Assembly: GCA_963836205.1 (NCBI GenBank)
Contig: CAWIIV010000017.1
Span: 96,001-160,000 of the forward strand
From: an uncultured Acidimicrobiia bacterium
Lineage (GTDB): Bacteria > Actinomycetota > Acidimicrobiia > Acidimicrobiales > AC-14
DNA length: 64,000 bases
Reading direction: 5' to 3'
Below are positions 9,561 through 26,126 of the stretch, piece after piece. A program made the translations under genes and the position numbers. Every line of letters begins with the position of its first letter. Positions within the stretch are counted from its first letter, which is position 1. Below the pieces are notes generated by a model. It was not told the origin of the DNA. It ran no database searches and was given only the letters and a program-made list of their open reading frames with translations.

Positions 9561-9656
9561 GGAATTCCCTTTCGGAGGTGGAGGGCCACGAGTGCTCGTG
9601 GGGAGGCCGGTCGGGCGGTGCGGTCGCCGGCAGCGGGGCGGCAGCCGGGCAGGGGT

Positions 9657-10043: not shown

Positions 10044-10195
10044 CAGGGTGGTGGCGCCCCGAAGGGGGACAGCCGGCTCAGGTTACCAACGCCCGGCTCC
10101 ACTCGGCGGTGCAGGGAGGGCCGCCTCCAACGAAGCGAAGGCGACAAGCTCAGCCCGTCGGCGAGCCGGCCAACCGCGACGGGCGACAAACAACG

Positions 10196-10612
10196 TCACG
10201 TGGGGCTGGTGATGGCGATGGTCGGAAAGTACGTCCGATACCGAGACGGGTCGCGTGTGAGCAATCCCAGTTCGGCAACGGCGGCGTGCGCTCCAATGAA
10301 GAAGTCGGGGAGCGGCGAGGATCTCGTTCCGCGGTTGCGCCGGTAGTCGAGGAACGTCTTGCCCGCCAGGAATGCCGCCTCCCACGGCAGGGCCAGCCGA
10401 CCATAGTCGCCGGGCGGGACGGCGGCATCGAGGTCCTCGATGCGACTGAAGCGGACCGAAACCTCGGCATAGATGACCGGGTTGATGAACAACGGGCCGG
10501 CGTCGGCGGCCCGGGCCAGCGCGTTCGCCGACCACCCGAGCCAGACCTCGTCCTCCGTCAGCACGTCGAGAAGCACGTTGCTGTCGACGAGAGTGCCGAT
10601 AGCCATCGTCAC
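10196..10612 (-). CDS. vapC: VapC family PIN-domain toxin
   Basis: LVDSNVLLD, YAEVS, LPDFFIGAHA, LLTRD. Confidence 0.95.
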   Translation of the reverse strand: MTMAIGTLVDSNVLLDVLTEDEVWLGWSANALARAADAGPLFINPVIYAEVSVRFSRIEDLDAAVPPGDYGRLALPWEAAFLAGKTFLDYRRNRGTRSSPLPDFFIGAHAAVAELGLLTRDPSRYRTYFPTIAITSPT

Positions 10613-10836
10613 AGCTGCCGGGTCAAAGCCATGATCTCCTCGGTCGTAAGCGCGACGTCGCCTCGCCCGCGTAGCCGCTGGACCAGCCGACTTCCACGCG
10701 TCGGCCCCTCCGCCAGCTTCCGGATCACGATCGCGTCGTCGTCTCGGTGGAACTCGACTTCGGTTCCGGCTCCGATCCCGAGCTCGTCGCGTAGGCGCTT
10801 GGGGATCGTCACCTGGCCCTTCTCCGTGACTCGCAT
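10609..10836 (-). CDS. vapB: AbrB/MazE/SpoVT family antitoxin
   Basis: MRVTEKGQVTIPKRLRDELGI...TTEEIMALTR; GTGA overlap with toxin. Confidence 0.93.
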   Translation of the reverse strand: MRVTEKGQVTIPKRLRDELGIGAGTEVEFHRDDDAIVIRKLAEGPTRGSRLVQRLRGRGDVALTTEEIMALTRQL

Positions 10837-10858
10837 GTAGGAAGACTACCGTTCCTAC
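10837..10858 (-). promoter_or_regulatory. vapBC operator palindrome overlapping a -10 box (leaderless promoter)
   Basis: GTAGGAA-N8-TTCCTAC abuts the ATG; TAGTCT lies 6 nt upstream of the ATG on the minus strand. Confidence 0.7.
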
Positions 10859-10861
10859 TCC

Positions 10862-11072
10862 TACCGACGGTGGGGACGGTTGACGAGCCCGCCGCCGGGC
10901 GCCAAGGCCGGGCGTTGGCGATCGTGCCCGACTCCACCCGGTCGGGGGCGAGCCGGCGGAAAGGCTCGAAGAGGTCGTCGACCTGGGCGGCGGGGACGAC
11001 GGGGCCCGAATTCGTGACTCGAACCCGTCCCGCGGGGCCGGTCTCGACCGTCAGCCATCCGCCGCCGGCCAT
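10862..11072 (-). pseudogene. Degenerate copy of the histidine kinase C-terminus
   Basis: GGWLTVETGPAGRVRVTNSGPVVPAAQVDDLFEPFRRLAPDRVES closely matches the kinase at 28125-28265. Confidence 0.85.
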
Positions 11073-11089
11073 TGGGGCAGCGGGCCGGA

Positions 11090-11478
11090 TCAGACGGCCG
11101 GAAGCGCCGGGCCCCGATCGCCACCCGCCCAGCGGAATGTCCACGAGCGGACCACGGGCCCGGCCGGGGGGACGAAGGGCCCGGCCAGAGCAAGTCCGGT
11201 GACGATGATCGCGGCCGCCAGCACTGCCACGGGGACGGCGGATGACCGGCGGGCGGCATCGACCGGCCGGTAGCCGTCCGTCGGCGCCGAGCCGGGGTCC
11301 GTCCCGACCTGCACGAGCCCGCGCCCACCCGTTTCACGTCGGCCCGGCGGTCCACCCCGCGGCCACAACGACGGCAAGGATGGCGAGCACGGGCATGGCG
11401 CCGGGGCCGACGGTGGACGACGGTCGGCGGCGGGGAGGCGGGAGGCGGGAGGCGGGAGGCGGGAGGCGGTCGCATCAA
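11090..11478 (-). pseudogene. Frameshifted second copy of the RGPP leader ORF
   Basis: YRPVDAARRS..P.AVLAAA.IVTGLALAG.FVPP.GPVVRS...AGGDRGPALPAV, spread over three frames; promoter region also duplicated. Confidence 0.85.
11433..11467. repeat. Heptamer tandem repeat (GGGAGGC)x5
   Basis: Five perfect copies counted directly. Confidence 0.95.
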
Positions 11479-11746
11479 GGGGTGGTGCCCGGGAGGGACA
11501 GCCAGCCCAGGATACCAACGACTCGTCCCGCGCGGCAGTGCGCCAGTGCGCCGCCATCCCCCGGCATGCCCGGCCCGACATCGGCGCCGATCGGGGTCCG
11601 CCAGAGCCCAGGTTCCTTCCCGTGGGCATCCGCGATCGGCGTTCAGTGGGCCGGTTAAGCTCGGTGTCGCGAGCTGGGGAGCGCGTTGAGGGAGGGGGGC
11701 GGGCGCCGTTCACTCGGATCGTGCGAATCCATGCCGCAGAAGCATC

Positions 11747-14026
11747 ATGGTCGGCGTACTGGGCGGCCTCGGGGTGTGGCGTGATGGCACCCCCGTGGCC
11801 GTGAGTTCCGGAGTCGCCTCGGTGTTGCTCTCCATGCTGGCCGTCGAGCGCCACCCGGTGACATCGAACGAGCTCCTCGACGTGCTCCAGCGTGTCGGGG
11901 TCAAGATCCGCTCCCAGGCGACGGTTCACACCGCCGTGTGGCGACTCCGGCGGGTCTTGGGCGACGATGCGCTCGCCGCCGCCGTCGGCTACAGCCTCAA
12001 CCGGGACATCTGCACTACCGACGCCGCCATCTTCGAGGACACGCTGGCTGATGCCCGTGCCAAACGGGCGGCAGGCGATCCCTGCGGTGCGGCCGCTCTG
12101 TTCGGCGAGGCGATCGCACTGTGGCGGGGCCCGGCCCTCGCCGAGCTCTCCGCCGGGTCTCACCGCTACCCGCACGCGCTCCGACTCGAAGAGCTGCGGA
12201 TCGGTGCGTCCGAGGAGTGGGCGGCCGCGCTGGCGGCCGACTCCCGTCCCGGCGAAGCCGTTCGGGTTCTGGAGCGGATCGTGCACGCCCACCCGCTCCG
12301 AGAGCACGCGTGGGCCCTGCTGATCGTGGCCCAGGATCAGGCGGGCCGGCGGGCGGACGCCCGCTTCTCTTTCGACCAGGCCCGTCTGCGCCTCGCCGAG
12401 CACGGCCTCGAACCCGGTTTGGAGCTCCTCGCCCGGTCCGCTCGGCTGGCCGTCCCCCCACTGGCCTCGGACGTCGACGGCGACGACCCTGGTACCCCGC
12501 TGCCGCCGATCGTGAAGGTGTTGCGCCGGCACCCCGTCGTGGGCCACCACGAGACGCTCGACATCCTGCGAACGGCGCTCGGATTGGACACCGCCGACCT
12601 GGGGACGTCGATCGTGCTGGTGTCGGGCCCAGCGGGGATCGGCAAGACGCGCCTGGTCGCCGAAGCGGTCGCCGAGGCGCATCGGGCCGGCGCGCGGATC
12701 TGGTTCGAGGTGACGGACTCGGGGTCGTGTGCTCCTCTGTCGCCGCTGGGGAGCTGGGCCCGAGCCGTGGCTTCGGGCCTGCCCCAGAGCCGGGAGCAGG
12801 AGGTCTGCCGCGGTCCCCTCCGCTCGCTTCTCCACCCCTCGGAGGCTTGGCCCGCTTCGACGGACCCCGATCACGAGCGGTGGGCGCTCTACGAGGCCGT
12901 GGCCGCGCTGGTTGCCGAGGTCTGCGGCCGACGGTCTGTGCTGGTGCTCGACGACCTTCACCGCGCCCCCAGCGACACCCTGGCCCTGCTGGGCTACCTG
13001 TTGAGCACCCGGCCGAGTCTGCCCCTGTGCGTCGTGTGCTCGTACCGGCCCGGCGCCGTCGATGACCAGTGGCTTGCCGCGCTCCAGGCGCTCAAGCGGC
13101 ATCCGGGTCTGACGGGCGACGTCGTGGTGCCCGCGCTCGATCGGCAGGCGTCCACCCAGCTGTTCGCGACCCTGAGCCCGAGCGCGGACGACGTTGAGGC
13201 CGACGACGACGAGCTGGCCGACCGCCTGGTGCGCGTAACCGGCGGGAACCCGGCGCTGATCCACCGCGTGGCCTTCGACGGGGATGCCCTCGCCCATGCC
13301 GTCAAAGGAGGCCCGCTTCCAGGGACGCTGGCGCAGGAGGTCGCCGGTCGGCTGACCGAGCAGCTCGACGCCGACAGCCGTTGGGCTGTCGAACTGGCCG
13401 CAGCCGCAGCCGTCGCCCAGCCGGTCGTCCCCGGGCGGGTGCTGGTTGCCGCGGCGGCGCTCATCGGGCGGCCTTCCGCGTGCCCGGTGCTCGACGGCGC
13501 CCGGAAGGCGACCAACGCGGGAATCCTGCACGAGGCGCCCGGGGTAGAGCATGCCTGGCACTTCGACAACGAGCTCTTCTGCCATTCCATCTACGAGTGC
13601 ATCCCCGCGCAGCACCGCGAGCGCATGCACGGCGCCATCGGCGACGTCCTCCGATCACTGCCCGACCCGGTCAGCGACGACCGGCGGGCGGAGCGGATCG
13701 CGTTTCACCTCTACCGGGCCTGGCCCGGGTGCCAGGCCGCGGAGGCGGCCCTGTGGTTGCGCGCCGCCGCCGAGCAGGCGATCGACCGGGCCGACCACAA
13801 GGGCGCGGCCGCCCTCGTCGCCCAGGCACTTGAGCTCTACGCGGGAGAGGCGACCTCCACTGCCGACCGGGAGCGGGGCGAGTTGTGGTTGTTCCTCGGC
13901 CGGGCACGGGTCGGTGCGGGCGACGGGCCCGGTGCGGCGATGGCCTTCAACGAAGCTGGCCGGCTGGGCCGGCAGTACGGGTGGCCGGACATCGAGGCCG
14001 CCGCCGTGGTGAGCGCCTCGAGGTGA
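11747..14026 (+). CDS. AfsR/SARP-type regulator (winged helix, BTAD, AAA ATPase)
   Basis: GVLGGL, ALWRGPALAE, HPLREHAWALLI, GPAGIGKT, LVLDDLH, TGGNP. Confidence 0.88.
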   Translation: MVGVLGGLGVWRDGTPVAVSSGVASVLLSMLAVERHPVTSNELLDVLQRVGVKIRSQATVHTAVWRLRRVLGDDALAAAVGYSLNRDICTTDAAIFEDTLADARAKRAAGDPCGAAALFGEAIALWRGPALAELSAGSHRYPHALRLEELRIGASEEWAAALAADSRPGEAVRVLERIVHAHPLREHAWALLIVAQDQAGRRADARFSFDQARLRLAEHGLEPGLELLARSARLAVPPLASDVDGDDPGTPLPPIVKVLRRHPVVGHHETLDILRTALGLDTADLGTSIVLVSGPAGIGKTRLVAEAVAEAHRAGARIWFEVTDSGSCAPLSPLGSWARAVASGLPQSREQEVCRGPLRSLLHPSEAWPASTDPDHERWALYEAVAALVAEVCGRRSVLVLDDLHRAPSDTLALLGYLLSTRPSLPLCVVCSYRPGAVDDQWLAALQALKRHPGLTGDVVVPALDRQASTQLFATLSPSADDVEADDDELADRLVRVTGGNPALIHRVAFDGDALAHAVKGGPLPGTLAQEVAGRLTEQLDADSRWAVELAAAAAVAQPVVPGRVLVAAAALIGRPSACPVLDGARKATNAGILHEAPGVEHAWHFDNELFCHSIYECIPAQHRERMHGAIGDVLRSLPDPVSDDRRAERIAFHLYRAWPGCQAAEAALWLRAAAEQAIDRADHKGAAALVAQALELYAGEATSTADRERGELWLFLGRARVGAGDGPGAAMAFNEAGRLGRQYGWPDIEAAAVVSASR

Positions 14027-14272
14027 GTGACCGGGCGGACACGGGCCGGGGCCAAACGTCACCGACGCCGAGAACGAGGAGCCGCCGTTCCCGGTCGGTG
14101 ACGTTGGTCAGACCGACGGCCGGCGCCTGCGGCATCAGCGTCGAGGACCTGCGCTCCGCCGCCCCGCCTCGACTGCGGGACCGCCTTCCTGAGCCCTTGA
14201 CCGTCGGGTGACGCTCCGGGGCGCGGTCGAGCGGCCCGCGTCACGGCCGCCGAGGCTGCTCGAGGGGGCCGG

Positions 14273-15478
14273 TCAGGTCGAGGCGGGCACCGAGGCCAGG
14301 TCGTGGTCGGCGCGGAAGGGCTCCGGACGATCGCCGCACCCCAGGAGCCACTCCAACGCTTCGGCCGAGCGTTGCCCAGCCCGCCCGTCACCGTAGAGAG
14401 CTTTCCCGACTGCGCGGTGAACCCCGCCGAGGTGGCCGCCAAGGATCTCCTCCGCCGCCCCCACGATCCGGTCCGTCTCGGTTCCGACGAGGGTCGCCAC
14501 CCCTGCCTCGATCCCTTCGTTGCGCTCGGTGCGGTCCCGCATCACGAGGACCGGCACGCCAAGCGCCGGTGCCTCCTCCTGCACTCCCCCGGAATCGGTG
14601 AGCACCAGAGAGGCGTTCGCCAGCAAACGGGCGAACTGCGCGTACATGAGCGGGGGAGCGATGCACACGTTGACGACATCGGCCAACTCGGTCTCGAACG
14701 TCGATCGAACGGACGGGTTCATGTGGGTCACGACGACGAAGGTGGTGTCCCGGTGCGACGAGGCCAGCGCTCGTACCGCCGCCGCGATGCGGCCCATCCC
14801 CTCCCCCCACGACTCACGCCGGTGAGCCGTCACGACGACCACCCGCCCGCTCCCTGCTAGCGCTCGTTCGAGCTGGGCCGGCAATCGGCCGGGCTTGCCG
14901 GCTGCATGATGGAGGGCGTCGACCACGGTGTTCCCGGTGACGATCACCTTGGCCGGACTGTGGCCCTCGGCCAGAAGATTTTGCTGAGCCGAGACCGTGG
15001 GCGCGAGGTGCAGCGCCGCGAACGCGGCAACCATTCGGCGGTTGCCCTCCTCGGGGAAGGGGGCGGCCAGGCTTCCACTCCGCAGGCCGGCCTCGACGTG
15101 GACGACCGGAATGCCCCGGAGGAAGGCGGCCTGCGCACCGCTGAGAACCGAGGCGGTGTCGCCCTGGACGATCACCGCGTCCGGCTGAAGGTCCGCCATC
15201 GCCCGGTCGAGGTGCAGCAGCAGATCGGCGTAGAGCCGCGCCAGCCCGTCCTTCGGCCGGCGGGGGATGCGAAGCGCCAACGTCGGAGTGATGTCGAAGA
15301 GGTCCAACACGTCCTCGACGACGTCGCCGTGCTGGCCGGTCGTGACGATCAACGGGAGGACCCGGCCCCGTTCCCGCATCGCCAGTGCCACCGGAGCGAG
15401 CTTGATGGCCTCCGGGCGGGTTCCGATCGTCAGGATGGCGGTTCGCGTCGATGGGGACGATCCCGAGCGCCCTGTCAT
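14273..15478 (-). CDS. wecB: UDP-N-acetylglucosamine 2-epimerase (non-hydrolysing)
   Basis: GTRPEAIKLAP, QGDT, HVEAGLRS, PFPEEGNR, TAHRRE, TDSGGVQEEAP, YGDG. Confidence 0.96.
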   Translation of the reverse strand: MTGRSGSSPSTRTAILTIGTRPEAIKLAPVALAMRERGRVLPLIVTTGQHGDVVEDVLDLFDITPTLALRIPRRPKDGLARLYADLLLHLDRAMADLQPDAVIVQGDTASVLSGAQAAFLRGIPVVHVEAGLRSGSLAAPFPEEGNRRMVAAFAALHLAPTVSAQQNLLAEGHSPAKVIVTGNTVVDALHHAAGKPGRLPAQLERALAGSGRVVVVTAHRRESWGEGMGRIAAAVRALASSHRDTTFVVVTHMNPSVRSTFETELADVVNVCIAPPLMYAQFARLLANASLVLTDSGGVQEEAPALGVPVLVMRDRTERNEGIEAGVATLVGTETDRIVGAAEEILGGHLGGVHRAVGKALYGDGRAGQRSAEALEWLLGCGDRPEPFRADHDLASVPAST

Positions 15479-18291
15479 CGCTCACTCCCCCCGGTCGGCG
15501 GCCGGTTCGGCCCGACGAGCGACGCCGGCTGGAGCTCGACCAGCAGCTCTCCGTAGAGTGCTTCAAGCCGCTCCTCGAGGAACCGCTCACCGCGGGCGGT
15601 GGTCTCGGTCAGACCCTCCTGCACGACCGCGAGCGCGTAGGCCTGCTTGCCCGACCTCCGGTAGCTGTCGGCCAGCAGCTCGACCAGCACCCCGCGAAAC
15701 ATCCGCACCCCGGCCCCGTCGAGGCGGCGGAGGGCGCGGGCCAGCCGTACTGCGCTGGCGTCGAAGTCGCCGTCCGCGTCGGCGAGGGCCCACGCCCGCA
15801 GGCATTGGGCGAGAGCGGACCAGGCGGGCATGTCGATGTCGAGGTCGTAGGTCGCGAGCCGTTTGGTCCAGGCCGCCACCTCGTCAGCGTCGCGTGAGAA
15901 TGCCCCGAGCATCACCAGTCCGAACAATGACACCGCCGAGCTCGACTCCGTGCCGACCCGAGCGGCGACACCCACGGCCTGGCGGCTCATCCTGCTCGCT
16001 CCGACGTCGTCGCCGGCCAGACCGAGGCCGAAGGCGGCGTACAGCGGGGCGGTCACCGCCGGCTGGTCGAGGAGCGGCACCGACAGGTCGAGGTCGCACG
16101 GGCCCACTCCCGCGTCGAGGACGGTTCCGAACAGGTCCCGGGCCGAGCCCGAGTCGCCGAGGTGGAAGGCGGCGACGCCGAGCGCCACCTGACTGGCGGC
16201 GAGCAGGTCGTCGTCGTCTCGGTGACTGGCCACGAAGGCGAGCTGGCCCCCCATGTTGCGGGCCTCGACGAAGTCGCCGCCGACGACCGCGTGGTCCCAG
16301 AGCCACGCCGCCGCGATCGCCGGCTTGTCGGCGGGCGAGAGCTCGATCAGCGACGCCCGAACCCTCTCCCGGACAGGCCCCAGCTTCTCGTTGCCGTAGC
16401 CGCCGCTCCTGGTCAGAATCTGCCCGATGGCGACGTGGACCCGGACGTCGAGAGCCGTGCGCTCGCTCCCTGGAGGCAGGCGCATGATCATCGCCCGACA
16501 GCGATCGAACAACGCTCTCGTCTCGGCACGGTCCAGCCGCGCGGCCGAGCGGATGGCCTCGAGCAGCTCGGCCAGCTCCTCCGCGTCACTGCCGGGAGCC
16601 GACACCACCGGGGGGCTGAGCGGGGCGGAAGGCGATGCCGCGGCCGTCGGGGGCAGGTGCTCACGCGCGGGGAGTGCGGAGACCAGCACGCGCGGCGGCG
16701 CTGCATCGGGCTCGGGGACGGTAACCGGGGGCCGGGGGCCGGGGGTGGGGGTCGTCGCCCCGGCGACCGGGGTCCCCGTGAGCCAACGATCCCAGAGGTC
16801 GACCAGGCGAGACAGGTGGCTGCCCGGCATCACCAGGCGACCGCGCAGCTGGACGACCCCGTAGGCCGCCAACGCGCCGAAGGGCAGCAACAGCGCCGTC
16901 AGCAGGTTGGCGACGGCCAGGTTGTGGGTCGCTCCGACGCTGCCTTTCATCGCCGCGACGGCCACGTACTCCACTGCGGCACACGAACCGAGGAGCACGA
17001 GGAGCTGCCCGACGGGCAGCCACTCCAGGGCATCGTGCTTGCGACTGTGGCGTTGGAGCGCCCGGCCGAGCCGGATGGCCATTCCCCACGCCACGGGCAA
17101 CAGGAGCCACGCGGCCCATCGCAGCGAGGGGAAGAGCACCGAGACCGCGCAGACGCGGCACGATCGCTCCTTCGCCGGCCCACCCTCCTCGGCTCGGTGG
17201 TTGCCGAGGTCGTTCGGACGCACGTCGGCCGCCTCCGCGGCAACCCGCCGGTGCAGGCCGATCAGCCTTCCCGGACGAGCCAGGAGGAGACGGGCGGCCC
17301 GGGCGACGGAGAAGTCGCGCCTGAAGACGGGGTAGTCGGGGTGCCCCGTGGCATTGCCGATGTCGTAGAACGAAGATCCTGCGAACACGCCCAGCGACGG
17401 CGGCAGGCCGAGGGCCACGAGGTCTTCGGCAGGCGGCTGATCACGATCGAGGACGGTCGAAAACACGAGGTTGTAGGCATCGGCCTCGACGATGGCGTCC
17501 GGGCGCAGAGACAGCTCGGCCACGCCGGCGACAAGGACCACGGATGCACACACGGCGGCCATCGCTCGGATCGCCGGCCGCTTCCACGGTGCCGGTCCCT
17601 TCACGCTGCGGACGATCAGGGCGACGGCCAACGGCAGGGCGAGCAGTCCGGTCGTGTCGTTCGCAGTGGCCAGGGCGACCGAGCACCCGCCCAGAACCAG
17701 CAGGGCCAGGGCGGCGGGACCGGTCCTGGCCGGGTTCCAGAGCCAGGCGGCGGACACGCCGATGATGGCCAGGAACGCGATCGGCTCGGTGTACATCGAG
17801 ACCAGATAGGCGGCGAATCCGGCGTCGGCGACCACGAGGGTGACGCCTACGCCGACGAGCAGACGAGCGCGTCGGCGTCCGGGGAGCAACGCCACCAGGC
17901 AACCGACGCCGAGACCCATGAGCCCGGCACTCAGGACCCCCAGCGTCCTCAGATCGAAACTAGGTCCAATCCCCGCCAGCTGGCTCACCGCCCGCGCCGC
18001 TCGCAGGAGCACCACCTCGCTGGACGGGTAACGCCCGGACCCCCAGCCGGCGCAGGCATCGACCGGCCACGAGTCAGGTGCGAAGTCCGTGACGAGATAG
18101 TCGAAGTAGCCGGTGGTGTCCGCCGCCGGCCGAGCCTTGATACCGACCTGACAGGCCAACCGGTCGCCCTCACCGTTGTCGGCCAGTCCGACACCCGGGG
18201 GCAGGAAGAGATGGAGGAGAACCACCAGCGCCGCCCCGGCCCCGGCCGCGACCGGCATGGGTAGCCGGCGCCATGCGGTCCGGATCCTCAC
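15475..18291 (-). CDS. Polytopic membrane glycan-synthesis protein (WsfD-like, GT-C type) fused to a C-terminal TPR-like domain
   Basis: GLADNGEGDRL motif, YLVSMYTEP, multiple TMs; Pro-rich linker, then a helical region like STAND-protein TPR tails; GTG overlaps the exosortase stop. Confidence 0.6.
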   Translation of the reverse strand: MRIRTAWRRLPMPVAAGAGAALVVLLHLFLPPGVGLADNGEGDRLACQVGIKARPAADTTGYFDYLVTDFAPDSWPVDACAGWGSGRYPSSEVVLLRAARAVSQLAGIGPSFDLRTLGVLSAGLMGLGVGCLVALLPGRRRARLLVGVGVTLVVADAGFAAYLVSMYTEPIAFLAIIGVSAAWLWNPARTGPAALALLVLGGCSVALATANDTTGLLALPLAVALIVRSVKGPAPWKRPAIRAMAAVCASVVLVAGVAELSLRPDAIVEADAYNLVFSTVLDRDQPPAEDLVALGLPPSLGVFAGSSFYDIGNATGHPDYPVFRRDFSVARAARLLLARPGRLIGLHRRVAAEAADVRPNDLGNHRAEEGGPAKERSCRVCAVSVLFPSLRWAAWLLLPVAWGMAIRLGRALQRHSRKHDALEWLPVGQLLVLLGSCAAVEYVAVAAMKGSVGATHNLAVANLLTALLLPFGALAAYGVVQLRGRLVMPGSHLSRLVDLWDRWLTGTPVAGATTPTPGPRPPVTVPEPDAAPPRVLVSALPAREHLPPTAAASPSAPLSPPVVSAPGSDAEELAELLEAIRSAARLDRAETRALFDRCRAMIMRLPPGSERTALDVRVHVAIGQILTRSGGYGNEKLGPVRERVRASLIELSPADKPAIAAAWLWDHAVVGGDFVEARNMGGQLAFVASHRDDDDLLAASQVALGVAAFHLGDSGSARDLFGTVLDAGVGPCDLDLSVPLLDQPAVTAPLYAAFGLGLAGDDVGASRMSRQAVGVAARVGTESSSAVSLFGLVMLGAFSRDADEVAAWTKRLATYDLDIDMPAWSALAQCLRAWALADADGDFDASAVRLARALRRLDGAGVRMFRGVLVELLADSYRRSGKQAYALAVVQEGLTETTARGERFLEERLEALYGELLVELQPASLVGPNRPPTGGSER

Positions 18292-18878
18292 GCCATCGAA
18301 CCTCCGGCGATGACCGGCCGCGGCGACCGGAACCCCAGTTGGATCAGGATCCACAGGCCGAGCACGCCGCCGGCCAGCGTCAAGATCGATCCGGCCACGA
18401 TGTGCGACCACCAGAAGCCGCTCTGCTGGCCCCACAGATGGGTCGCCCAGGCGATCATGCTCACCCGCCCGATGTTCACGGCCGTGACGGCCGCCGCGGC
18501 CAGCGCGGTGGCGAACAGCACCCGATCCGGAGGAAGGCGCTTGCCGACGCAGACGAGGGCGGCGATGCAGAGCAGGGGTCCGATGACGAAGGCGGCCGAG
18601 CAGTCCGGGGTGATGAACAAGCCGCGCGCCGCCGAGGTGCCGACGGACCACATGAAGACCTGGTGGCCTTGCCAGTAGACCGTGTCGGTGCTGGTGAGCC
18701 AGCGAGTGATGACGGAAGCACCCTCGGCTTCGAGATCGCGAAACCCGCTGTTCGCCACCATGACGGAAACCGCGATGGCCACCAGGCCCACGGCCACCGC
18801 GACCCGCCAGACCAACGGACCCGTTTCGCGCGTCCCCGCGTCAGCGCCTGCCGACGGGTCCGGCGTCCTTTCCGTCAT
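18288..18878 (-). CDS. Exosortase/archaeosortase family protein
   Basis: Cys-Arg-His triad in canonical context: ITPDCSA, VNIGRV, WWSHIVAG; several TMs. Confidence 0.88.
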   Translation of the reverse strand: MTERTPDPSAGADAGTRETGPLVWRVAVAVGLVAIAVSVMVANSGFRDLEAEGASVITRWLTSTDTVYWQGHQVFMWSVGTSAARGLFITPDCSAAFVIGPLLCIAALVCVGKRLPPDRVLFATALAAAAVTAVNIGRVSMIAWATHLWGQQSGFWWSHIVAGSILTLAGGVLGLWILIQLGFRSPRPVIAGGSMA

Positions 18879-21064
18879 CCGACCCTTTCAGCATCGACCG
18901 GCAACGTGGGGAAGTCGACATCGATGGGGAGCGGCCAGCGCCCCACGTCGGGGGGAGCGCTCTTCACGTCGGACGGGGGCCCAGGTCGGTCGTCGTCATT
19001 CGCGCCGGAACCGGCAGGGGCTGCCGCCTGCACGGCCACCCGGGCTCGCAGCTCCTTGAGCTCGGCGGCCAGGGCGGTCAGTCGGTCCTCGAGCCGTGCC
19101 ATCGCGCCGCCAACACCGGCGGCGGCCCCCGATCGTTCGTCGCGCCGAACCTCGGCCGGCGGGACGACCGCCGGGGGCGCCTGGCGCTCGAGCACCTCGG
19201 CCCACGCCGCCAGCGCACCGTCCCGATCAGGCCCGTCCAGGGCGATGAGGTCGGGAGCGGGGAACGTCACCGAGCTGTGGGCGTCGACACTGGCCACCAC
19301 CCGGCTGGCCAGCGCGTGGCGGGCGGTCAGGATGGCGGCCGCGCCCGGGCCGGCGGCCAACATGGCCGTGACGGCTTCGGCGGCGCTGGTAGAGGTGACC
19401 GTACGACCCGGCTCGAGGTCGCCGACGTTGAAGAAGGCCAGCCCGTAGGAGGTCGCGGGACGGCCCGGCCAGGGTGCGAACAGGGCCGCCAGGCGCCGGT
19501 CCGCACCGCACTCGGCCAGCAGGCGAACAGACGCGAGCAACGCAGGATTGGCGGCCACGTCACCGCCCGCCAGCTCGGCCAGCTTCTCCCACGCCACCGC
19601 CGCGGCCTGCTTGACCTCGCGGTGTCGCCGTGGGCGACTGCCAGCCGGTACCGTCCCGGCGGGCCTGTGACCTTTGTCGCCGCCGACCAGCACGAACTGC
19701 GGCACGTCGGGGAGGTCGACCGGCACGGTGCGCACGACGGCCGTCCTGGCCACCACTGGCGAGCCGGCCTCGGCCTCTCGTTGCGTCTTCGCCCAGGACT
19801 TTCGCCCGGTCAGGATCCGGAAGAACCCTCCCCACACGCACGCGAACGACAGGTAGTTCATGACCACCACCGCGTGGCTGAACAGCATGGCCCGGGACAC
19901 GCCGATCTCGTGGTCCCGCCGGTGGTAGATGGCGCCGCTGATGATGGCGGGGAAGAAGGAGAGGAGGTACCAGAAGCCGAGCGAGATGGGGACGCCCAGC
20001 AGGTCCGATGCCGGCAGGAAGGTGGCGGTCTGGTTCGTGACCATCCCCCAGACGCAGACGTGGAAGAGGATCGCCCACGGGAGGTCGAGGATCCATGGGC
20101 AGAGCAGGTAGGAGATGAGCTCCAGAGCTCTCAGGTGAGGGAGGTCCGGCGTCCTCCAGATCTCCCGGATGTGCGAACCAGCGGTCATGTGGCCCTGGTA
20201 CCAGCGGGTGCGCTGACGCACGAGCCGCCGTACCGACGCCACCGCCTGCTGGTCGACGGCGGCACCGGGCGCCGACGTGGCGACCCAGCCCTTGATCGCC
20301 AGGCGCAGCCCGAGGTCGAGATCCTCGGTCAGGGAGTCGCTCCAGGGCTCGTCACCCAACGACCCGAGGGCGGACAGGCGGGTGAACTGGCCGTTGCCGC
20401 CGAGGGACACCGAGCCGGTCGCGACCCTCCCGAACTGCGTGACGGCCGCCAGGGACCAGAAGAGGTAGTCCTGGTACTGGGTGAGGAAGTGGTCGCGGTT
20501 GCGGATGCGGACGGCGAGCTGGGCCGCGCCGACGCGGGGATCGTCGAACTTGGGCAGCACCGCGGCGAGGGCGCCGTTCGACAGGCGGCCGTCGGCGTCC
20601 ATCACGCAGACGATCACCCGCTCCGAGTCGAGGCCGCGATCGGCGGCATCGCCCACCAGCCATCGATAGGCGGCGTTGAGAGCTGCGCCCTTGCCCTGGC
20701 GGGCGTTCGGGAGGTCCCGGCGCAACACGGTCGTGCCGGCGCCGCCGGCATCGAGGGCCAGGGTGCCGGTGTCGTCGTCGCTGCCGTCGTCGACCACGAT
20801 CAGGTGCGAGCTGGCGCCGCCCGCGAGGCCGCTCACGGTCCGAGCGATCACCGCCGACTCGTTGAGGGCGGGGACGACGATGTACACGAACCAGCCCGGC
20901 GGGGGAGCCGGGACATGGGGGTCGCCGAACCCGAGGCGAGCCTGGTCACCGAGGCTCGCCCCCTCTCGGTGGAGCTGGCGCCATCCGGCTACCAGCTCCC
21001 ATCCCAGGTACAGAGCGGAGAGCACGATGATGACCGAAGCCAGCAACATGGCGAACCGCATCAT
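18875..21064 (-). CDS. Processive GT2 glycosyltransferase with long C-terminal extension
   Basis: PALNE, DDGSDD, GKGAALN, DAD, TEDLD, QRTRW, TMs, W.KT.R. Confidence 0.92.
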   Translation of the reverse strand: MMRFAMLLASVIIVLSALYLGWELVAGWRQLHREGASLGDQARLGFGDPHVPAPPPGWFVYIVVPALNESAVIARTVSGLAGGASSHLIVVDDGSDDDTGTLALDAGGAGTTVLRRDLPNARQGKGAALNAAYRWLVGDAADRGLDSERVIVCVMDADGRLSNGALAAVLPKFDDPRVGAAQLAVRIRNRDHFLTQYQDYLFWSLAAVTQFGRVATGSVSLGGNGQFTRLSALGSLGDEPWSDSLTEDLDLGLRLAIKGWVATSAPGAAVDQQAVASVRRLVRQRTRWYQGHMTAGSHIREIWRTPDLPHLRALELISYLLCPWILDLPWAILFHVCVWGMVTNQTATFLPASDLLGVPISLGFWYLLSFFPAIISGAIYHRRDHEIGVSRAMLFSHAVVVMNYLSFACVWGGFFRILTGRKSWAKTQREAEAGSPVVARTAVVRTVPVDLPDVPQFVLVGGDKGHRPAGTVPAGSRPRRHREVKQAAAVAWEKLAELAGGDVAANPALLASVRLLAECGADRRLAALFAPWPGRPATSYGLAFFNVGDLEPGRTVTSTSAAEAVTAMLAAGPGAAAILTARHALASRVVASVDAHSSVTFPAPDLIALDGPDRDGALAAWAEVLERQAPPAVVPPAEVRRDERSGAAAGVGGAMARLEDRLTALAAELKELRARVAVQAAAPAGSGANDDDRPGPPSDVKSAPPDVGRWPLPIDVDFPTLPVDAERVG

Positions 21065-21088
21065 GGGACTGTCGATTCCTTCTGATCG

Positions 21089-21268
21089 TCAGTCGTCGGG
21101 CAGGCCGGCCCGCCGCTGGGAGGCAGCCCGGAGGAGCACGAAGCCGCCGATGACCATCAGCGAGGCCAAGACGACGGCGAGAGCGGTCGAGAAGCCGGTC
21201 GTTGCGAGGGTTCCTCCAGCCACGCCCAGTCCGCCTAAGACGGCTGCGCGCGATCCCGGGTCATACAC
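21089..21268 (-). CDS. 59-aa peptide with LAxTG motif, TM helix and basic tail (absent from ORF track)
   Basis: GAGGAG RBS, GTG start; MYDPGSRAAVLGGLGVAGGTLATTGFSTALAVVLASLMVIGGFVLLRAASQRRAGLPDD. Confidence 0.85.
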   Translation of the reverse strand: MYDPGSRAAVLGGLGVAGGTLATTGFSTALAVVLASLMVIGGFVLLRAASQRRAGLPDD

Positions 21269-21371
21269 GTATCTCCTCGCTCGTTGCTCGTAGGTTGGTG
21301 TGGGCTTCGACCACGTCGACCGGAGGAGCGCCTAGGGCAGTCCTCCGGTCGACGTGCACGCTGAGGGTTTC

Positions 21372-23628
21372 TCAGGCGTCGGCCGGTGTTGCCTTGCGCC
21401 TGCGGCCCACCACCATCAGGGCGACCAGCCCGGCGATGCCCGCTGCACCGCCGAGGACGGCGACGTTGGCCAGTGGGACTCCGGCGGTGGGCGTGAAGCT
21501 GTAGAACACCGACCCGACCTGCCACCCGTCGGAGAGCACCGAGGGGTTCCAGGTCCGAGCCGAGCAGTCCTGGCCCGGCGTGCTGCTGGTGGCCTCGGGC
21601 CAGACCAGGAACTTGTAGTAGCCGGGCGAGTCACCGGCAGCGGCGAAGTCCACCGCCGGGAGCTCGATCTCGTTGAAGCCGGTGTTGTGGTGGTCGGTGA
21701 CGGCTACCGCCACTGGCGCCGGGGTGAGGGCCGACGGCGAGCCGTCCTCGTGCACGAACTGGTAGAAGGCCTGGGTGGTGATGCCGCAGTCGGTGTCGGG
21801 GTTCGGGTTGTCGGCGTCGATCAGGAACTTGTTGGCCGGGACCTGTCCGGTGTTGGTGATGACACCGAAGCCGTCCTGGCTGTTGCCGTCCGGGCTGCCC
21901 CAGGCGTTGTCCCATGGGAGCCGGGCGACCGGGCGACCGGTTCCGCTGCAGACCCCGAAGCTCCACGTCTCGACCGGGAGGGGGAACTGGAAGCTCCCCG
22001 CCGGGACGTTGACTTCCGCCCGGAGGTTGAAGTCCTTCTCCGGGCACTGGACGCTGTCCATCGCACCGTCCCCTCGCATGGTGATGGCAACCAGGTCGTC
22101 GGCGCCGTGGTGCTCGACTTCGACGACTTGGAACTGCTGGTCGACGCCGGGGCCTGCGACCGGGATGGCCGTGTGGTTGAAGTCGCCGTTGCCGTCGTAG
22201 TCGTACCTGATGGTGGTCGGGAGCTGGCCCGCAGGCACCCGGACGATGAAATCGGCCCGGAACTCGCTGTCGAAGCCATCGGTGCGGAAGGCGTAGCCGA
22301 GAACCCGCTCGAGCCTGGGCGACGCCAGGGGCACGGTGGCGATAGCCAGGTTGTGGTACATGCCGGCCGAGATCTCCGAGACGACGGTGCCGGCTGATCA
22401 CCGCGGCTGGGCCGATCAGCGTCTTGGGATAGACGCCTCCCACGGTGTTGTTGCCGTTCTGGCCATTGCCGTTGTAGCCACAGGTGAAGACCTGACCGCC
22501 GGTGGTCAGCAAGGTGGTGCTGACCTCGCCACCGTCGGCCTGATGGAACTCGGTGCCTGCCGGCGGGTTGACCAGCACGGGTGTGTGCACCTCGATCACG
22601 CTGTTGTTGCAGAGCTGGCCGTAGTCGTTGAAGCCGGTGGACAGCAGCTTGTTCTCACTGGTGACAGCCAGCGAGTGGTACTCGCCCGCCGCGATCGAAG
22701 CGACGGTGTCGCCCGCCAGCTTGTTGGACAGGTCCATGGTGACCGGTTGGTGTCGTTCGATGTTGGTCGTATCGCCCAGCTCCCCGCTGAGGTTCCGCCC
22801 CCAGCCCCAGACGACACCGGTGCTCGTCAGGGCAAGGCTGTGGAAGCCCTTGGCCGCGACGGAGTGGGCCGTCCCGGGCGGGATGTTGGGGACGAGTGTC
22901 GGCGTCGCCTTGTCGCCGGCCACAGTGCTGCCGACCTGACCGTTGGCGTTCCAGCCCCAGGCGTAGACGTTGTTGTCATTCCCGAGCGCAAGCGTGTGGT
23001 GGTCGCCACCGGCGATGGCAACCGCGAGAACCCCGCCCGGAAGCAGTGGGAGGAGCTCCGGGACCAGCTTCGGGCCGCCGACGGTGCCGTCTCCGATCTG
23101 GCCCACGTTGTTGTCGCCCCAGCCCAGGATCCGGCCCCCGGCGGTGAGGGCGTGGCTGCCACGCTCATGGGCGACCACGTCGATGACCGAGTCTCCGACC
23201 GGCAGGGCGCTGAGGTCGACGAAGTCAGGCACGATTCGCTGGAGGCCGTCGGCCTGGCCCAGATTGCCGGTGATCGGACATCCCCAGCTGATGATGCGGT
23301 TGTCGTCGGTGATGGCCAGGTAGTGCTCGAAGTCGCCGGCGTCGACCTTCGTCACGTGGACACCCTCGGGCAGCAGGATGTCGGTGGGGACATAGCGGTC
23401 GGTGTTCGTCCCGTCGCCGATGCGGAAGCAAACCTGGAAACCCCAGGCCAGCAGGGTGCCGGGCCCGCTGGTCGTGCCGGCCGATGCAGGCGGCGACGAC
23501 ACGATCGCACTGAGCAACGCGCCCACCAGGGCGGCAGCTGCCACGACGCGCGGAAGCCGTGTGCGGTCGCGGAGCTGCCAGCGGCGGCTCGGAGAAGAAG
23601 CGCTCACCTTCGATGTCCTCTCGTTCAC
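21372..23628 (-). CDS. Secreted RCC1-repeat surface protein with C-terminal VP-TM-RRR sorting tail; one frameshift near 22392
   Basis: Signal peptide (..PASA), repeated HxLAL...WGxNxxGQ.G units; last repeat continues in another frame (GTVVSEISAGMYHNLA); ends GVPLANVAVLGG...VGRRRK. Confidence 0.85.
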
Positions 23629-23916
23629 GCCCAGGGGCGTTAGGCCAGGTCGGCCCGTTGTGGTTGTCGCTCAGACTTGGAGGCAGCGGTGCCAGCAAGG
23701 TTGATTTCGGCCGATGGTCTCAACCGCATGGCGCGGGACCCTCACCAAGGCCTTCCCGGGCGGGAAGCCCCGGCGTCCCCGATGCGGCACGCTTACCGTG
23801 GCATCCTGTACCAGACTGTCATCATTCGCCGAACGACCGCTGTTAACGTGCTCGAACGAGCGCCGCCCCAGCAGTGGGTGTGGCGCATTCTCGGCTGATC
23901 GTCGAAGGCCAAACGC

Positions 23917-24705
23917 ATGCCGTCGAAACCATCAAAGCGGTCCGTGGAGCCAGCGGACCGAGCCTCGACCGTGACATTGGGCGTGCTGGGGCCGATCGTG
24001 ATGGCCAACGGAGGCGGGCCCATCGCCCTTCAGGGCCAGATTCGGGGCCTCCTCGCCTGGCTGAGCATGTACCGGCGCGACGGCATTCACGCCGACCAGC
24101 TGGCCGACCTCCTCTGGGGTGAGCAGATGCCTCAGCGACCCGCCCAGCAACTCCAGATCATGATCGGCCGCCTGTCCCGGACGCTCGGGGAACCGGTGGT
24201 GGGGATCTCGGGGGGTCGGGCGCGGCTCCTGATCGACCCGGCCGTCATTGATGCCCGCCGGTTTGACGCACTCCTGGCCACTCAGACCGGTGCGCGGGAG
24301 TCGGTGCTGGTGCAGGCCATCGGTCTGTGGCGGGGAAGGCCCTACCCCGACATCTCCGGCCATGTGCACGCGCTCGGTGAGGTCGCCCGCCTCGAGCAAC
24401 TGCATCTGGGTGCGCTCGAGGAGCTGTACGCGTTGCGGCTGGCCGGAGCGGCGCCCGTCGTCGATGTCGTGGCCGATCTCACGATGCTCACCGCGGTGCA
24501 TCCGGACCATGGCCGCCTCTGGCAGCTGCTGGCCCTCGGACTGGCGAAGGGAGGACGCCGAGTCGAGGCCCTGCGAGTCCTGAACGAGCTCCGGGCTCTG
24601 GGCCGGCGAGATCCATGGATGCTGGCAACAGAGTCGGCAATTCAGGCCGACGACGGCTCCGCCCTGGACCAGCAACTGCGGACGCTTCGCCAAACGCCCC
24701 ACTGA
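23917..24705 (+). CDS. Small SARP/BTAD transcriptional regulator
   Basis: LGVLGP, LADLLWG, IDARRF, LWRGRPY, GRRVEAL; start may be GTG 23971. Confidence 0.85.
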   Translation: MPSKPSKRSVEPADRASTVTLGVLGPIVMANGGGPIALQGQIRGLLAWLSMYRRDGIHADQLADLLWGEQMPQRPAQQLQIMIGRLSRTLGEPVVGISGGRARLLIDPAVIDARRFDALLATQTGARESVLVQAIGLWRGRPYPDISGHVHALGEVARLEQLHLGALEELYALRLAGAAPVVDVVADLTMLTAVHPDHGRLWQLLALGLAKGGRRVEALRVLNELRALGRRDPWMLATESAIQADDGSALDQQLRTLRQTPH

Positions 24706-24933
24706 CACGCCCGAGTGGGCGGCGTCGAGCCCGGGCGGCCGCGGGTTTGACGAGTGCGGCTCATGCCCGGGTCCGACGCTGTCACGGGCCTTGCGTGGCC
24801 TCGGAGGGAGCGCAGGCACTCCCGGAGTCATCGACGCCGCCGTGCTCCGGGCGGTGCCGACATTCCAGATTTTGGGTCGTTCGGCTCATTCCGGGGCAGC
24901 TCCTCTCCAGCGTGGACGCAATACGGCCGATAG

Positions 24934-25956
24934 TTGGGTGTGACCGCGACCCGTCGAGCACCGTTCAGGCCCGGCGCGAGCCGTCGAGCACTGATCGCCG
25001 TGCTCGTCGGGCTCACGCTTCTGACCGGCCAGGCGACATCGGCCGAAGCCCTCCTCCGGCCTCTGCCGATGTTCGTGCAGGTGGCGACCCTGGGTCCGAC
25101 CTACTCGCCAGCAGAGGTGCGGTCGTGGATGGGACGGATCTGTCGGGGTCGCGAGGTGGTCCTCCAGGACGTGGCCGGCCAGGACGGACGGCTGTTCGAG
25201 GCGTACCTCGACGTCATCGCGCCCTACCTGCCCGGCGGGTCCAAGGCGTGTTTCAGCCGGGTGTTCGTGGGCACCGTCGATCTGGCCTGGGCCGGCGCCG
25301 GATCGAAGTACGTCGAAGGGGTTCAGGACGCCGCCTTCCAGCAGCGGTACCTGTCGATGTCGGACACGGCAGCCCGAGCCTTCGTGGCCCGGTACCCCCG
25401 GCTGAAGTTCGACTGGTACCTGACCTACGAGGCCAACCTGAACCAGTTCTACTACCCGGCGGTACACCAGGCATACACGTCGATGGTCACCGCCGAGATG
25501 AAGAACCTCCGCTCGATTCGCCGGGGAGCCGTCATGTGGTCACCGGTCTTCGCGTTCCCCTATTCGGCTTACAGCGGGAACCTGGCAGGGATGACCCAGC
25601 TGCGGGCAAACCTCGTCGACTTCTTCGCGACCTTGGCCCGAGAAGCCGGCGGCCTGCAGATCCTCGACCTGCAGGACTACGTGGCGGGCTCCGCCTGCCA
25701 GCCGGACTGGGACCGCACGAGCCCGCAGGACGCCGTCGGTTGGGTCAACTTCCTGCTCGGCCTCCAGCAGATCAAGACGGTCGAGCTCAACGTCGAGCAG
25801 TACGCGTTCAACTGCGCGACCGGCACCATCGGTCCTGGTAGCGCCACCGAACTGGCCGCTCGAACCTCGTTCTACAACAGCCAGCGCATCCGACTCGGCC
25901 CCGCTTTCGAGGTTCGCTACTGGATGCAGGTGCACGGGCTGTCCCTTTTCGCCTGA
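24934..25956 (+). CDS. Secreted protein, possibly glycoside-hydrolase-like TIM barrel (DUF4434-like)
   Basis: Signal peptide ending AEA; WYLTYE, WSP, LQD, NVE spacing resembles DUF4434. Confidence 0.55.
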   Translation: MGVTATRRAPFRPGASRRALIAVLVGLTLLTGQATSAEALLRPLPMFVQVATLGPTYSPAEVRSWMGRICRGREVVLQDVAGQDGRLFEAYLDVIAPYLPGGSKACFSRVFVGTVDLAWAGAGSKYVEGVQDAAFQQRYLSMSDTAARAFVARYPRLKFDWYLTYEANLNQFYYPAVHQAYTSMVTAEMKNLRSIRRGAVMWSPVFAFPYSAYSGNLAGMTQLRANLVDFFATLAREAGGLQILDLQDYVAGSACQPDWDRTSPQDAVGWVNFLLGLQQIKTVELNVEQYAFNCATGTIGPGSATELAARTSFYNSQRIRLGPAFEVRYWMQVHGLSLFA

Positions 25957-25981
25957 CCGCGGCTCGGGGCCGCGGCGCCCC

Positions 25982-26126
25982 TCACGGGACGACTTCGGCG
26001 ACCTTGATGGACGCGGGGGTGGGCGGGCACGGGTTCGCCGGCGGGGCGGCGGGCAGGGAGACGGTGACGTCGAGGCCGCCGTCGGGGCGGGCGGTGGCCT
26101 TGACCTCGCCCCCGTGGGCCTTGGCC
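25982..26126 (-). CDS. Sensor histidine kinase, exon 2 (3' of group II intron)
   Basis: AKAHGGEVKATARPDGGLDVTVSLP...stop; completes the HATPase domain. Confidence 0.9.

Follow-up and report, generated by a model that had tools for sequence, protein, structure and literature searches.

The question of what bacterial exosortases cut, and to what they attach the proteins that they cut, is raised in a compact form by a gene cluster of an uncultured Acidimicrobiia bacterium (GTDB lineage Bacteria; Actinomycetota; Acidimicrobiia; Acidimicrobiales; AC-14). The DNA analyzed here, referred to as the window, is a stretch of 64,000 nucleotides (nt) from contig CAWIIV010000017.1 of assembly GCA_963836205.1 (positions 96,001 to 160,000, forward strand), and all coordinates are those of the window unless otherwise stated. 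We consider it likely that the cluster is a dedicated sorting cassette, in which one enzyme from an unnamed clade of mini-exosortases serves one cargo protein, and that the cassette is carried on a repeat-bracketed 17.2-kb segment. Judged from the sequences compared, the conserved core would consist of four genes, which encode a secreted cargo with a sorting tail, a mini-protein of ~55 amino acids (aa) with an LAxTG motif, a family 2 glycosyltransferase (GT2) of processive type, and the mini-exosortase. The copy in the window extends this core with WecB, a WsfD-like GT-C/TPR fusion, a DUF4434-like glycosidase, and two SARP regulators. The region had been singled out in an earlier note made from the sequence alone; that observation proved real with corrections, and its interpretation, which was right in outline, was partly supported.

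Since the G+C content is ~70% across the region, bare open frames mean little, and the genes were therefore mapped via third-position GC content (GC3) and family scans. This procedure bore out the list of parts given in the earlier note, namely an RCC1 protein, an LAxTG peptide, a GT2, an exosortase, a GT-C-like protein, and wecB, all on the minus strand. The features of this run were as follows:

14273-15478, minus strand: WecB (TIGR00236, PF02350)
15475-18291, minus strand: WsfD-like polytopic transferase with a TPR-like C-terminal half (NF051875)
18288-18878, minus strand: mini-exosortase, 196 aa (TIGR04178, PF09721)
18875-21064, minus strand: GT2 membrane glycosyltransferase (PF13641, PF13632)
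21089-21268, minus strand: LAxTG mini-protein, 59 aa (from its translation)
21312-21356, no strand assigned: stem-loop with arms 21312-21332 and 21336-21356 (repeat search)
21372-22397, minus strand: second frame of the cargo gene (GC3 phase switch and translation)
22395-23628, minus strand: first frame of the cargo gene (PF25390, RCC1, RCC1_2)

The last four genes had been described as overlapping stop to start, and this arrangement was seen at all three junctions. The GT2/exosortase and WsfD/WecB overlaps read ATGA, and the exosortase/WsfD overlap reads GTGA, unless the true start of WsfD is an ATG 30 nt downstream. A gap of 24 nt, which contains a purine-rich stretch, separates the mini-protein gene from the GT2 start. 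Between the cargo stop and the mini-protein start lies the stem-loop, the 21-nt arms of which are 90% complementary around a 3-nt loop. It has no T run and was not called a terminator by the consensus scan, and it could act as a terminator, an attenuator, or a processing site. The scan of the locus for promoter and terminator consensus sequences gave nothing useful.

The enzyme at the center of this analysis exceeded the cut-offs of the general exosortase signatures, with 41.9 bits for TIGR04178 (cut-off 23) and 29.6 bits for PF09721 (cut-off 25.7). The named subfamilies gave a different picture, as the scores for XrtS (NF033767, 94.1 of 145 bits), XrtP (NF012139, 79.9 of 200), and XrtR (NF012138, 71.8 of 150) all fell short. 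The suggestion that the family may already have a hidden Markov model was thus correct insofar as NCBIfam models for XrtP, XrtR, XrtS, and others exist, but the locus lies under every one of their cut-offs. The 18 exosortases scanned from other loci were under the subfamily cut-offs as well (best 100.7 vs. 145). The TIGR03110 model, which is associated with XrtG, gave 16 bits for the window enzyme against 102.75 and matched 5 of the 39 relatives scanned, and the 8TM_EpsH model TIGR02602 matched only 3 of the 39.

The earlier note had let its reading stand or fall with the alignment of the catalytic triad, and Cys93, Arg138, and His159 proved invariant in 39 of 39 aligned sequences (the window and 38 relatives), with Asn135 kept in at least 90%. 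By the positive-inside rule, the three residues are predicted to sit close to the outer ends of hydrophobic segments. When 1.84 billion representatives were searched exhaustively with HMMER, 393 clusters were obtained at E ≤ 1e-3 and 110 at E ≤ 1e-10, and those relatives that have a database name were labeled only "exosortase/archaeosortase family protein". The window enzyme would accordingly be placed, by its residues and scores, as an exosortase of an unnamed clade related to NCBIfam XrtP/XrtR/XrtS, with a predicted role as a protease or transpeptidase.

A scan of public genome contigs with the single exosortase protein returned no relative, and a seven-row exosortase alignment used as the seed recovered three loci in genome contigs and two in metagenomes. 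With the exosortase as query, the family was found in at least 2 of 40 other relatives, and it was not found in 7 of 7 same-genus genomes (protein query, best 8 candidates per genome). With the exosortase profile, at least 1 carrier was detected in a phylum-wide sample of 400 other genomes (E ≤ 1e-8) and at least 19 in an order-wide sample of 400 other genomes (E ≤ 1e-6). All genome searches scored the best 8 candidates per genome, and the carrier counts are lower bounds. Together, these counts suggest that the exosortase family is rare and patchy.

Twenty loci were compared, namely the window, L004, L005, L013, L006 to L008 (genome contigs), L011 (metagenome), L041 to L043, and L045 to L053 (order search). 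L044 (a duplicate of L007), L012 (a 2.3-kb fragment), and G622 (unpublished) were left out, as were six order matches weaker than E 1e-28 (G515, G607, G663, G772, G671, and G643). For the gene counts, tblastn was run with the window proteins, while the mini-protein was sought with a profile and the tails with a regular expression. Co-occurrence in other genomes had been proposed as a check, and the GT2, the peptide, and the exosortase did recur together: a GT2 was found beside the exosortase in 19 of the 20 loci (the exception being L051), and the mini-protein was present in 16 loci at E < 1e-8, or 18 when the weak matches in L008 and L013 were counted. The regular expression found the mini-protein in 13 loci, and a profile built from those 13 added L050, L046, and L004; the profile had no match in L041 or in L042, the contig of which ends at the exosortase. 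A tailed neighbor, defined by a P-motif abutting a hydrophobic stretch and followed by RRR(R), was encoded in 17 of the 20 loci. The mini-protein gene lay directly beside the exosortase gene in 13 of the 18 loci that have one, and the commonest gene order was mini-protein, exosortase, GT2, tail protein.

The remaining genes were less constant. A WecB homologue was found near the exosortase in nine loci, SARP-like matches in three (two of them weak or partial), and homologues of the barrel protein in three, namely the window, L042 (51% identity), and L048 (66%), while the WsfD/TPR protein and the RCC1 protein were each seen in the window only. With these counts, the "self-contained" module could not be kept as the earlier note had drawn it, and WsfD, RCC1, and SARP appear to be local additions in the window copy.

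The motif at the start of the tail was V-P-L-A-N in the window, (P/D)-L-A-N-P in three proteins of L006, and (G)-L-P-I-A-G-G in many loci. Six of the nine tailed neighbors scanned against NCBIfam matched the choice-of-anchor P, G, or C families, and 14 of 18 had a signal-peptide-like N-terminus in a crude test; on these grounds, the tailed neighbors were taken as real sorted proteins. When tail flavor was mapped onto a maximum-likelihood tree of the 20 enzymes, eight changes were required, compared with a mean of 12.1 after shuffling, and none of 200 shuffles was as low, which lends descriptive support only to a clustering of tail flavor with enzyme clade. Two cassettes from separate clades (L045 and L046) are present in one genome (G779), one with an LPIAGG-type tail and the other with a PLxxP-type tail. 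Another genome, G505, likewise has two mini-exosortase cassettes of different clades (L041 and L051).

The cargo of the window cassette had been described as an RCC1 surface protein whose tail consists of VP, a transmembrane segment, and RRR. The propeller and the tail are both encoded, but not in one open frame here. The first frame (23628 to ~22398) contains a signal peptide and the RCC1 propeller (PF25390, 213.9 bits; RCC1, 144.2 bits; RCC1_2, 140.8 bits), and the second frame (22397-21372) contains the last RCC1 blade, ~290 more residues, and the sorting tail (~21372-21500). The frame switch was placed at ~22395-22398 from the GC3 phase and a reading of the junction, and skipping one base joins the two frames. 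Four soil-metagenome runs were aligned, and a contig from one of them (X3) has one base fewer at 22397, joining both frames. This contig of 338 nt covers 22369-22707 at a depth of 5.2 and carries 28 other differences (~92% identical), from which it follows that a close relative has a continuous cargo gene; two more contigs from X3 span the latter half of the cargo gene, tail included. At most 0.11 of the sampled words were found in any public run, and no run was near-identical across 22397. The extra base in the window may be either a real mutation or an assembly error.

The second half of the cargo was modeled as two all-beta, beta-sandwich domains with a predicted local distance difference test (pLDDT) score of 75.5, and a fold search with this C-terminal half gave only generic Ig/FN3-like beta-sandwich matches (TM-score ≤ 0.3, best Z 7.8). 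The ~290-aa module is 48-51% identical to parts of Streptomyces and Kitasatospora DUF7933 proteins and of a Longispora RCC1 protein, and in the latter the shared module lies at the other end of the protein. The module (22395-21500) has conserved Cys residues, belongs to no Pfam family, and takes varied positions in these Streptomyces/Kitasatospora DUF7933/DUF11 and Longispora proteins (P0154-P0158). By these similarities, it may be a mobile surface domain.

The tail of the cargo has the tripartite form of a sorting signal, with VPLAN abutting the transmembrane segment and RRRK seven residues from the end. Its best sorting-signal model was PVV-CTERM (NF051874), with 16.6 bits (E 0.0049) against a cut-off of 27. 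The earlier note had proposed a scan of the genome for other such tails, and a profile of 19 tails, the window tail among them, was compared with 14,588 open reading frame (ORF) ends. Only the window tail scored below 1e-3, and the next match in the genome (E 0.0033) was not C-terminal in the same way. One exosortase and one tail below 1e-3 in the genome would be consistent with a one-to-one pairing. The available part of the preprint by Haft (10.1101/2023.06.07.544157) describes dedicated systems in which one enzyme and one target are encoded side by side and the motif abuts the transmembrane segment without a spacer. The tailed neighbors in 17 of 20 loci, the single tail in the genome, and the abutting motif together fit this pattern.

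The mini-protein comprises 59 aa, with an initial Met-Tyr, a Gly-rich stretch of ~18 aa, LATTG, a transmembrane segment, and a basic end of the form R..RR. It has neither a signal peptide nor a cargo or passenger domain, and just 20 residues precede the LAxTG motif. Against NF058583, the model for an "LAXTG motif-containing small protein", it scored 22.1 bits (E 8.5e-5; cut-off 65) and its relatives 14-32 bits, and it shares the form of that family, being small, with LAxTG followed by a transmembrane segment and basic residues. The 16 clear mini-proteins are 51-62 aa long, start with Met-Tyr (Met-Asn-Tyr twice), and continue with a Gly-rich stretch, LAxTG, a transmembrane segment, and an Arg-rich tail. 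M1, Y2, L21, A22, T24, G25, G42, R47, and R52 were invariant in 16 of 16.

A search of a 5.8-billion-protein collection with the mini-protein profile retrieved 72 proteins of 28-109 aa, nearly all of them unnamed or "hypothetical"; one was named an LPXTG anchor protein by NCBI. One family member passed the LPXTG_anchor model (17.6 bits vs. 15.9). An 83%-identical mini-protein was found on a contig of 78,982 nt, and an 81%-identical exosortase was likewise recorded on a contig of 78,982 nt. Within the window genome, the next-best matches of the profile were C-terminal signals of large proteins, consisting of LA[RL]TG, a short spacer, a transmembrane segment, and a basic end, the best of which was C6:233084-236287 (E 2.7e-5). 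Exosortase signals abut the transmembrane segment and LPXTG signals are spaced from it, but this criterion fails to separate the mini-protein from these large LAxTG proteins. Judged by these similarities, the mini-protein resembles a sortase signal that lacks a signal peptide and a passenger and has extra invariant residues.

Sortase genes (PF04203) were found in all 14 carrier genomes tested, with three such genes in the window genome, and their presence does not discriminate between the readings for this reason. In L042 (G530:C91), a sortase gene (5440-5802) is the direct neighbor of the exosortase cassette, and in another genome a sortase gene (G500:C9:968819-969235) lies ~10.6 kb from the cassette. 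The proximity in these two genomes may point to a functional link between sortase and exosortase sorting.

The GT2 scored 92.4 bits for PF13641 and 84.9 bits for PF13632. Its best family was NF053846, the XrtP-associated glycosyltransferase (270.5 bits vs. a cut-off of 520, aa 61-432), and the next was PgaC/IcaA, with a score so far under the cut-off (66.8 vs. 422 bits) that the enzyme is not PgaC itself. The protein carries the motifs DDD96, DAD156, TED246, and QRTRW284, has transmembrane segments at 1-28, 316-343, 356-376, and 392-410, three of which follow the catalytic domain, and ends in a C-terminal extension of ~290 aa. The motifs D, DxD, TED, and QxxRW with transmembrane helices after the catalytic domain form the pattern of processive membrane synthases such as PgaC/IcaA, cellulose synthase, and chitin synthase, and the GT2 is predicted from its motifs to be of this type.

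WecB exceeded the TIGR00236 equivalog cut-off (342.9 vs. 210.15 bits) and scored 319 bits for PF02350, and by family it would be a nonhydrolyzing UDP-GlcNAc 2-epimerase that supplies UDP-N-acetylmannosamine (UDP-ManNAc). The WsfD-like protein is a GT-C-type protein with ~10 hydrophobic segments within aa 10-482, and its aa 16-471 matched positions 2-449 of the 452-position profile NF051875 (237.9 bits vs. 80). Its C-terminal part is similar to the TPR region of TIGR03903 (47.8 bits), a fusion that is additional to the WsfD family. For Paenibacillus alvei, WsfD is described (PMC2943079) as the enzyme that takes glucose from a lipid carrier and adds it as a branch to ManNAc in the S-layer glycan. 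The action of that enzyme on ManNAc fits the presence of WecB at the locus.

The genes and elements on either side of the minus-strand run were as follows:

10929-11067, no strand assigned: direct repeat, left copy of 139 nt, imperfect (82% identity to the right copy)
11747-14026, plus strand: large SARP-type regulator (BTAD 98.5 bits, AAA_16 70.1 bits)
23917-24705, plus strand: small SARP regulator, 262 aa (BTAD 51.6 bits)
24934-25956, plus strand: secreted DUF4434-like barrel protein (Atlas score and predicted fold)
26239-28057, minus strand: group II intron, with the reverse transcriptase/maturase ORF at 26239-27867 (TIGR04416, RF02003)
28125-28263, no strand assigned: direct repeat, right copy of 139 nt, inside the 3′ part of a histidine-kinase gene

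As the earlier note had stated, BTAD regulators flank the run, and both scores are above the gathering score of 22.1. The large regulator is divergent from the end of the operon and combines a wHTH/BTAD region with AAA_16 and a TPR-like C-terminus. It scored 79.5 bits for the AfsR model NF053617, far under the cut-off of 1430, and it is not conserved, with one weak match in L011. The small regulator, which is divergent from the cargo gene, was AfsR-like at 65.8 bits, under the cut-off, and had partial matches in L006 and L043 only. An 11-nt direct repeat with a 23-nt spacing in the divergent promoter region between the cargo and small SARP genes (23830-23863) was too weak to be taken as a SARP box.

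Beyond one of the regulators, a secreted hydrolase-like gene had been claimed. The secreted protein is encoded at 24934-25956, past the small regulator, and the call as a hydrolase was only moderately supported. The protein had an Atlas score of 0.93 to DUF4434 clusters, and no Pfam match, missing the gathering score of PF14488; its L048 homologue scored 15.2 bits vs. 30. The model (pLDDT 70.9) shows alternating strands and helices, and the best Foldseek match in the PDB was 4h41 (TM-score 0.52-0.56), followed by GH10 xylanases. The score and the fold give moderate support for a secreted DUF4434-like (beta/alpha)8-barrel, which is probably a glycoside hydrolase.

Comparison with relatives of the same genus indicated where the cassette is inserted. 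The left flank is homologous up to ~8590 and the right flank from ~28100. Five same-genus genomes were searched, and in four of them the two flanks matched on a single contig at a distance of 0.2-5.8 kb, compared with 19.5 kb in the window (stretch 8590-28124). The copies of the 139-nt direct repeat, spaced by 17,196 nt, enclose both SARP genes, the cassette, the barrel gene, and the group II intron. The same-genus genomes match the left-repeat stretch at a single place, which also matches the right copy. A second repeat of 234 nt (9654-9887 and 11087-11320, 79% identity) lies at the left edge. No tRNA gene was found in the window, and no integrase was seen in the stretch 8590-28124. By this comparison, the cassette is accessory and probably acquired.

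The group II intron (TIGR04416, 415.1 bits vs. 300; RVT_1 and GIIM; RF02003 for D1-D4 at 27923-28057, 91 bits vs. 49) is the next gene past the barrel gene and abuts the right repeat, and it is not part of the sorting system. The histidine-kinase gene (28110-29909, minus strand) has HAMP, HisKA, and an HATPase_c that is truncated at the edge of the translated range and may be interrupted. Outside the cassette, the window also contains genes for a virginiamycin B lyase-family propeller protein (2040-3404, plus strand), a GlmU-like nucleotidyltransferase in the conserved left flank (5631-7397, plus strand), and a LigD primase-polymerase domain (51003-52040, minus strand).

How far such a system was already known was examined in NCBIfam and in the literature. 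Five kinds of component model in NCBIfam gave their best or only matches to the corresponding window genes, all under cut-off, and the clade appears to be an unnamed one of a kind that is already catalogued there, with models for its components. The XrtS/XrtP/XrtR set shares with the window an enzyme of ~155-200 aa with the triad, an adjacent GT2, a small LAxTG protein, and tailed cargo of the choice-of-anchor type. The window differs from this set in its P-L-A-N tail motif, its RCC1 and Ig-like cargo, and its scores, all of which are under cut-off. No paper on XrtP, XrtR, "exosortase P", or PVV-CTERM was found in a search outside of which subscription journals lay, the literature matches to "XrtS" were only unrelated ones (e.g., X-ray Thomson scattering), and no paper paired an exosortase with LAXTG.

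The XrtG cassette of Firmicutes (TIGR03110) is similar in that a Gram-positive exosortase relative is paired with a GT2, but it has a different sorting signal and matched the window only marginally; we know of no LAxTG mini-protein in that cassette. With sortase-mediated LPXTG/LAXTG anchoring, the mini-protein shares the LAxTG motif, the transmembrane segment, and the basic tail, like the large LA[RL]TG proteins of the genome, whereas it differs from sortase substrates in having no signal peptide or passenger and in being encoded with an exosortase.

The PEP-CTERM/XrtA (EpsH) system of Gram-negative bacteria also has a Cys/Arg/His membrane enzyme, a tail in which the motif abuts the transmembrane segment and Arg residues follow, and a linkage to exopolysaccharide genes, as far as described in the available parts of the sources (PMC1569441; 10.1101/2023.06.07.544157). 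XrtA is a much larger 8-transmembrane protein with many targets per genome in diderm bacteria, whereas the window has a 196-aa enzyme with one target in a monoderm actinobacterium and an added LAxTG mini-protein. ArtA/PGF-CTERM of Haloferax volcanii belongs to the same enzyme superfamily but is archaeal, with a lipid acceptor and neither a GT2 partner nor a mini-protein. In the available part of the Haft preprint, ArtA is the only superfamily member with reported tail removal and attachment to a lipid anchor (10.1101/2023.06.07.544157). The same part states that processing by rhombosortase has been confirmed, whereas a demonstration of one-step transpeptidation is still lacking for these enzymes, ArtA included.

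From these parts, a course of events can be proposed. WecB, as a member of its family, would supply UDP-ManNAc, and the GT2 would polymerize and export a beta-linked glycan containing N-acetylhexosamine. The WsfD-like enzyme may decorate this glycan from a lipid-linked hexose, and the barrel enzyme may trim it. The RCC1/Ig-like cargo would be exported via its signal peptide and would stay in the membrane through its tail, where the exosortase, with Cys93, Arg138, and His159 near the outer leaflet, is predicted to cut at the Pro-Leu-Ala-Asn abutting the transmembrane segment. By analogy with ArtA/PGF-CTERM and PEP-CTERM, the cut cargo would then be passed to an acceptor, most probably one linked to the GT2 product. 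The anchoring to the glycan or to a lipid that the earlier note had put forward is likewise a prediction by analogy.

Several points weigh against this proposal. The cargo gene is out of frame here, and the cassette may be non-functional in this genome. Cleavage, acceptor, and the link between glycan and protein are drawn from analogy and should be read as predictions. The curated subfamily cut-offs were missed by the enzyme, the GT2, the mini-protein, and the tail alike, so that the names express resemblance only. The top rank of the window tail arose by construction, as that tail was among the training sequences of the profile; the tail proteins were selected with a regular expression and by visual inspection, and kin have labels in common on the tree. 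The conservation of the cassette does not extend to WsfD, RCC1, and SARP, so that the proposed glycan chemistry may not generalize. Finally, the signal of the mini-protein is sortase-like, and the exosortase may not touch the mini-protein at all.

The last point leads to the other explanations considered, three of which turn on the role of the mini-protein. There is a real chance, if short of an even one, that the mini-protein is an ordinary substrate of a housekeeping (class E-type) sortase, fixed to the wall as a Gly-rich stub and carried by the cassette as an accessory that the exosortase does not recognize. Class E sortases read LAXTG, the next genome matches of the mini-protein profile are the large LA[RL]TG proteins, and the LPXTG_anchor match, the anchor name given by NCBI, and the sortases of all 14 carrier genomes, one adjoining the cassette in G530, agree with this explanation. 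Sortases are near-universal in these genomes, however, and hence do not discriminate, while the mini-protein lacks a signal peptide and a cargo domain, which no known sortase substrate lacks, keeps invariant residues outside the sortase signal (M1, Y2, G42, R47, R52), and is encoded directly beside the exosortase in most loci. That neighborhood could instead mean that the mini-protein is the main substrate of the exosortase, or a pseudo-substrate that regulates it, and that the tails of P-motif, transmembrane segment, and RRR are plain membrane anchors. The mini-protein is indeed as conserved with the enzyme (16-18 of 20) as the tail proteins are (17 of 20), but the tails have the tripartite exosortase-type form and sit on choice-of-anchor families, and tail flavor tracks enzyme clade while LAxTG is invariant across clades, so we regard this explanation as improbable. 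A combination of both sorting systems is more improbable still: the mini-protein would be an adaptor, the exosortase would join the C-terminus of the cargo to its Met-Tyr/Gly-rich N-terminus or to a GT2 glycan thereon, and a sortase would then join LAxT to peptidoglycan.

Two further explanations concern the cassette as a whole. If the exosortase-like protein and the GT2 formed a pair for polysaccharide synthesis with no sorting role, the mini-protein could be a synthase subunit comparable to IcaD/PgaD, which are the small partners of the IcaA/PgaC synthases. The GT2 is the most constant neighbor (19 of 20), resembles PgaC/IcaA (66.8 bits), and has its best match in an NCBIfam glycosyltransferase model named for its association with XrtP; yet the catalytic triad in 39 of 39 sequences argues for a protease or transpeptidase, tailed secreted neighbors stand in 17 of 20 loci, and we hold this explanation to be very improbable. 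It is somewhat unlikely, on the other hand, that the cassette is decaying in this genome and that its cargo gene, on a segment acquired recently, is a genuine pseudogene. The frame break at ~22397 lies outside any long homopolymer, a relative is one base shorter there, and the segment has a group II intron and duplicated sequence at its edges, all of which would suit decay. The other cassette genes are nevertheless open, with coding-type GC3 and stop-to-start overlaps, no run was near-identical over 22397, and an assembly error of a single base is plausible in a draft of 25 contigs with 88.6% completeness.

Taken as a dedicated sorting cassette, the locus has consequences for annotation and for the study of exosortases. 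All 19 exosortases scanned (the window and 18 loci) fall under every current subfamily cut-off. The clade brings the exosortase problem down to four small genes and one cargo in monoderm bacteria, and it places a sortase-type signal without a passenger beside an exosortase. The adaptor relay, if true, would explain how an exosortase can anchor proteins in a bacterium without an outer membrane. Since a cultured carrier exists (Kitasatospora, locus L008), the cleavage site, the acceptor, the dependence on the GT2, and the cross-talk with sortase are directly testable.

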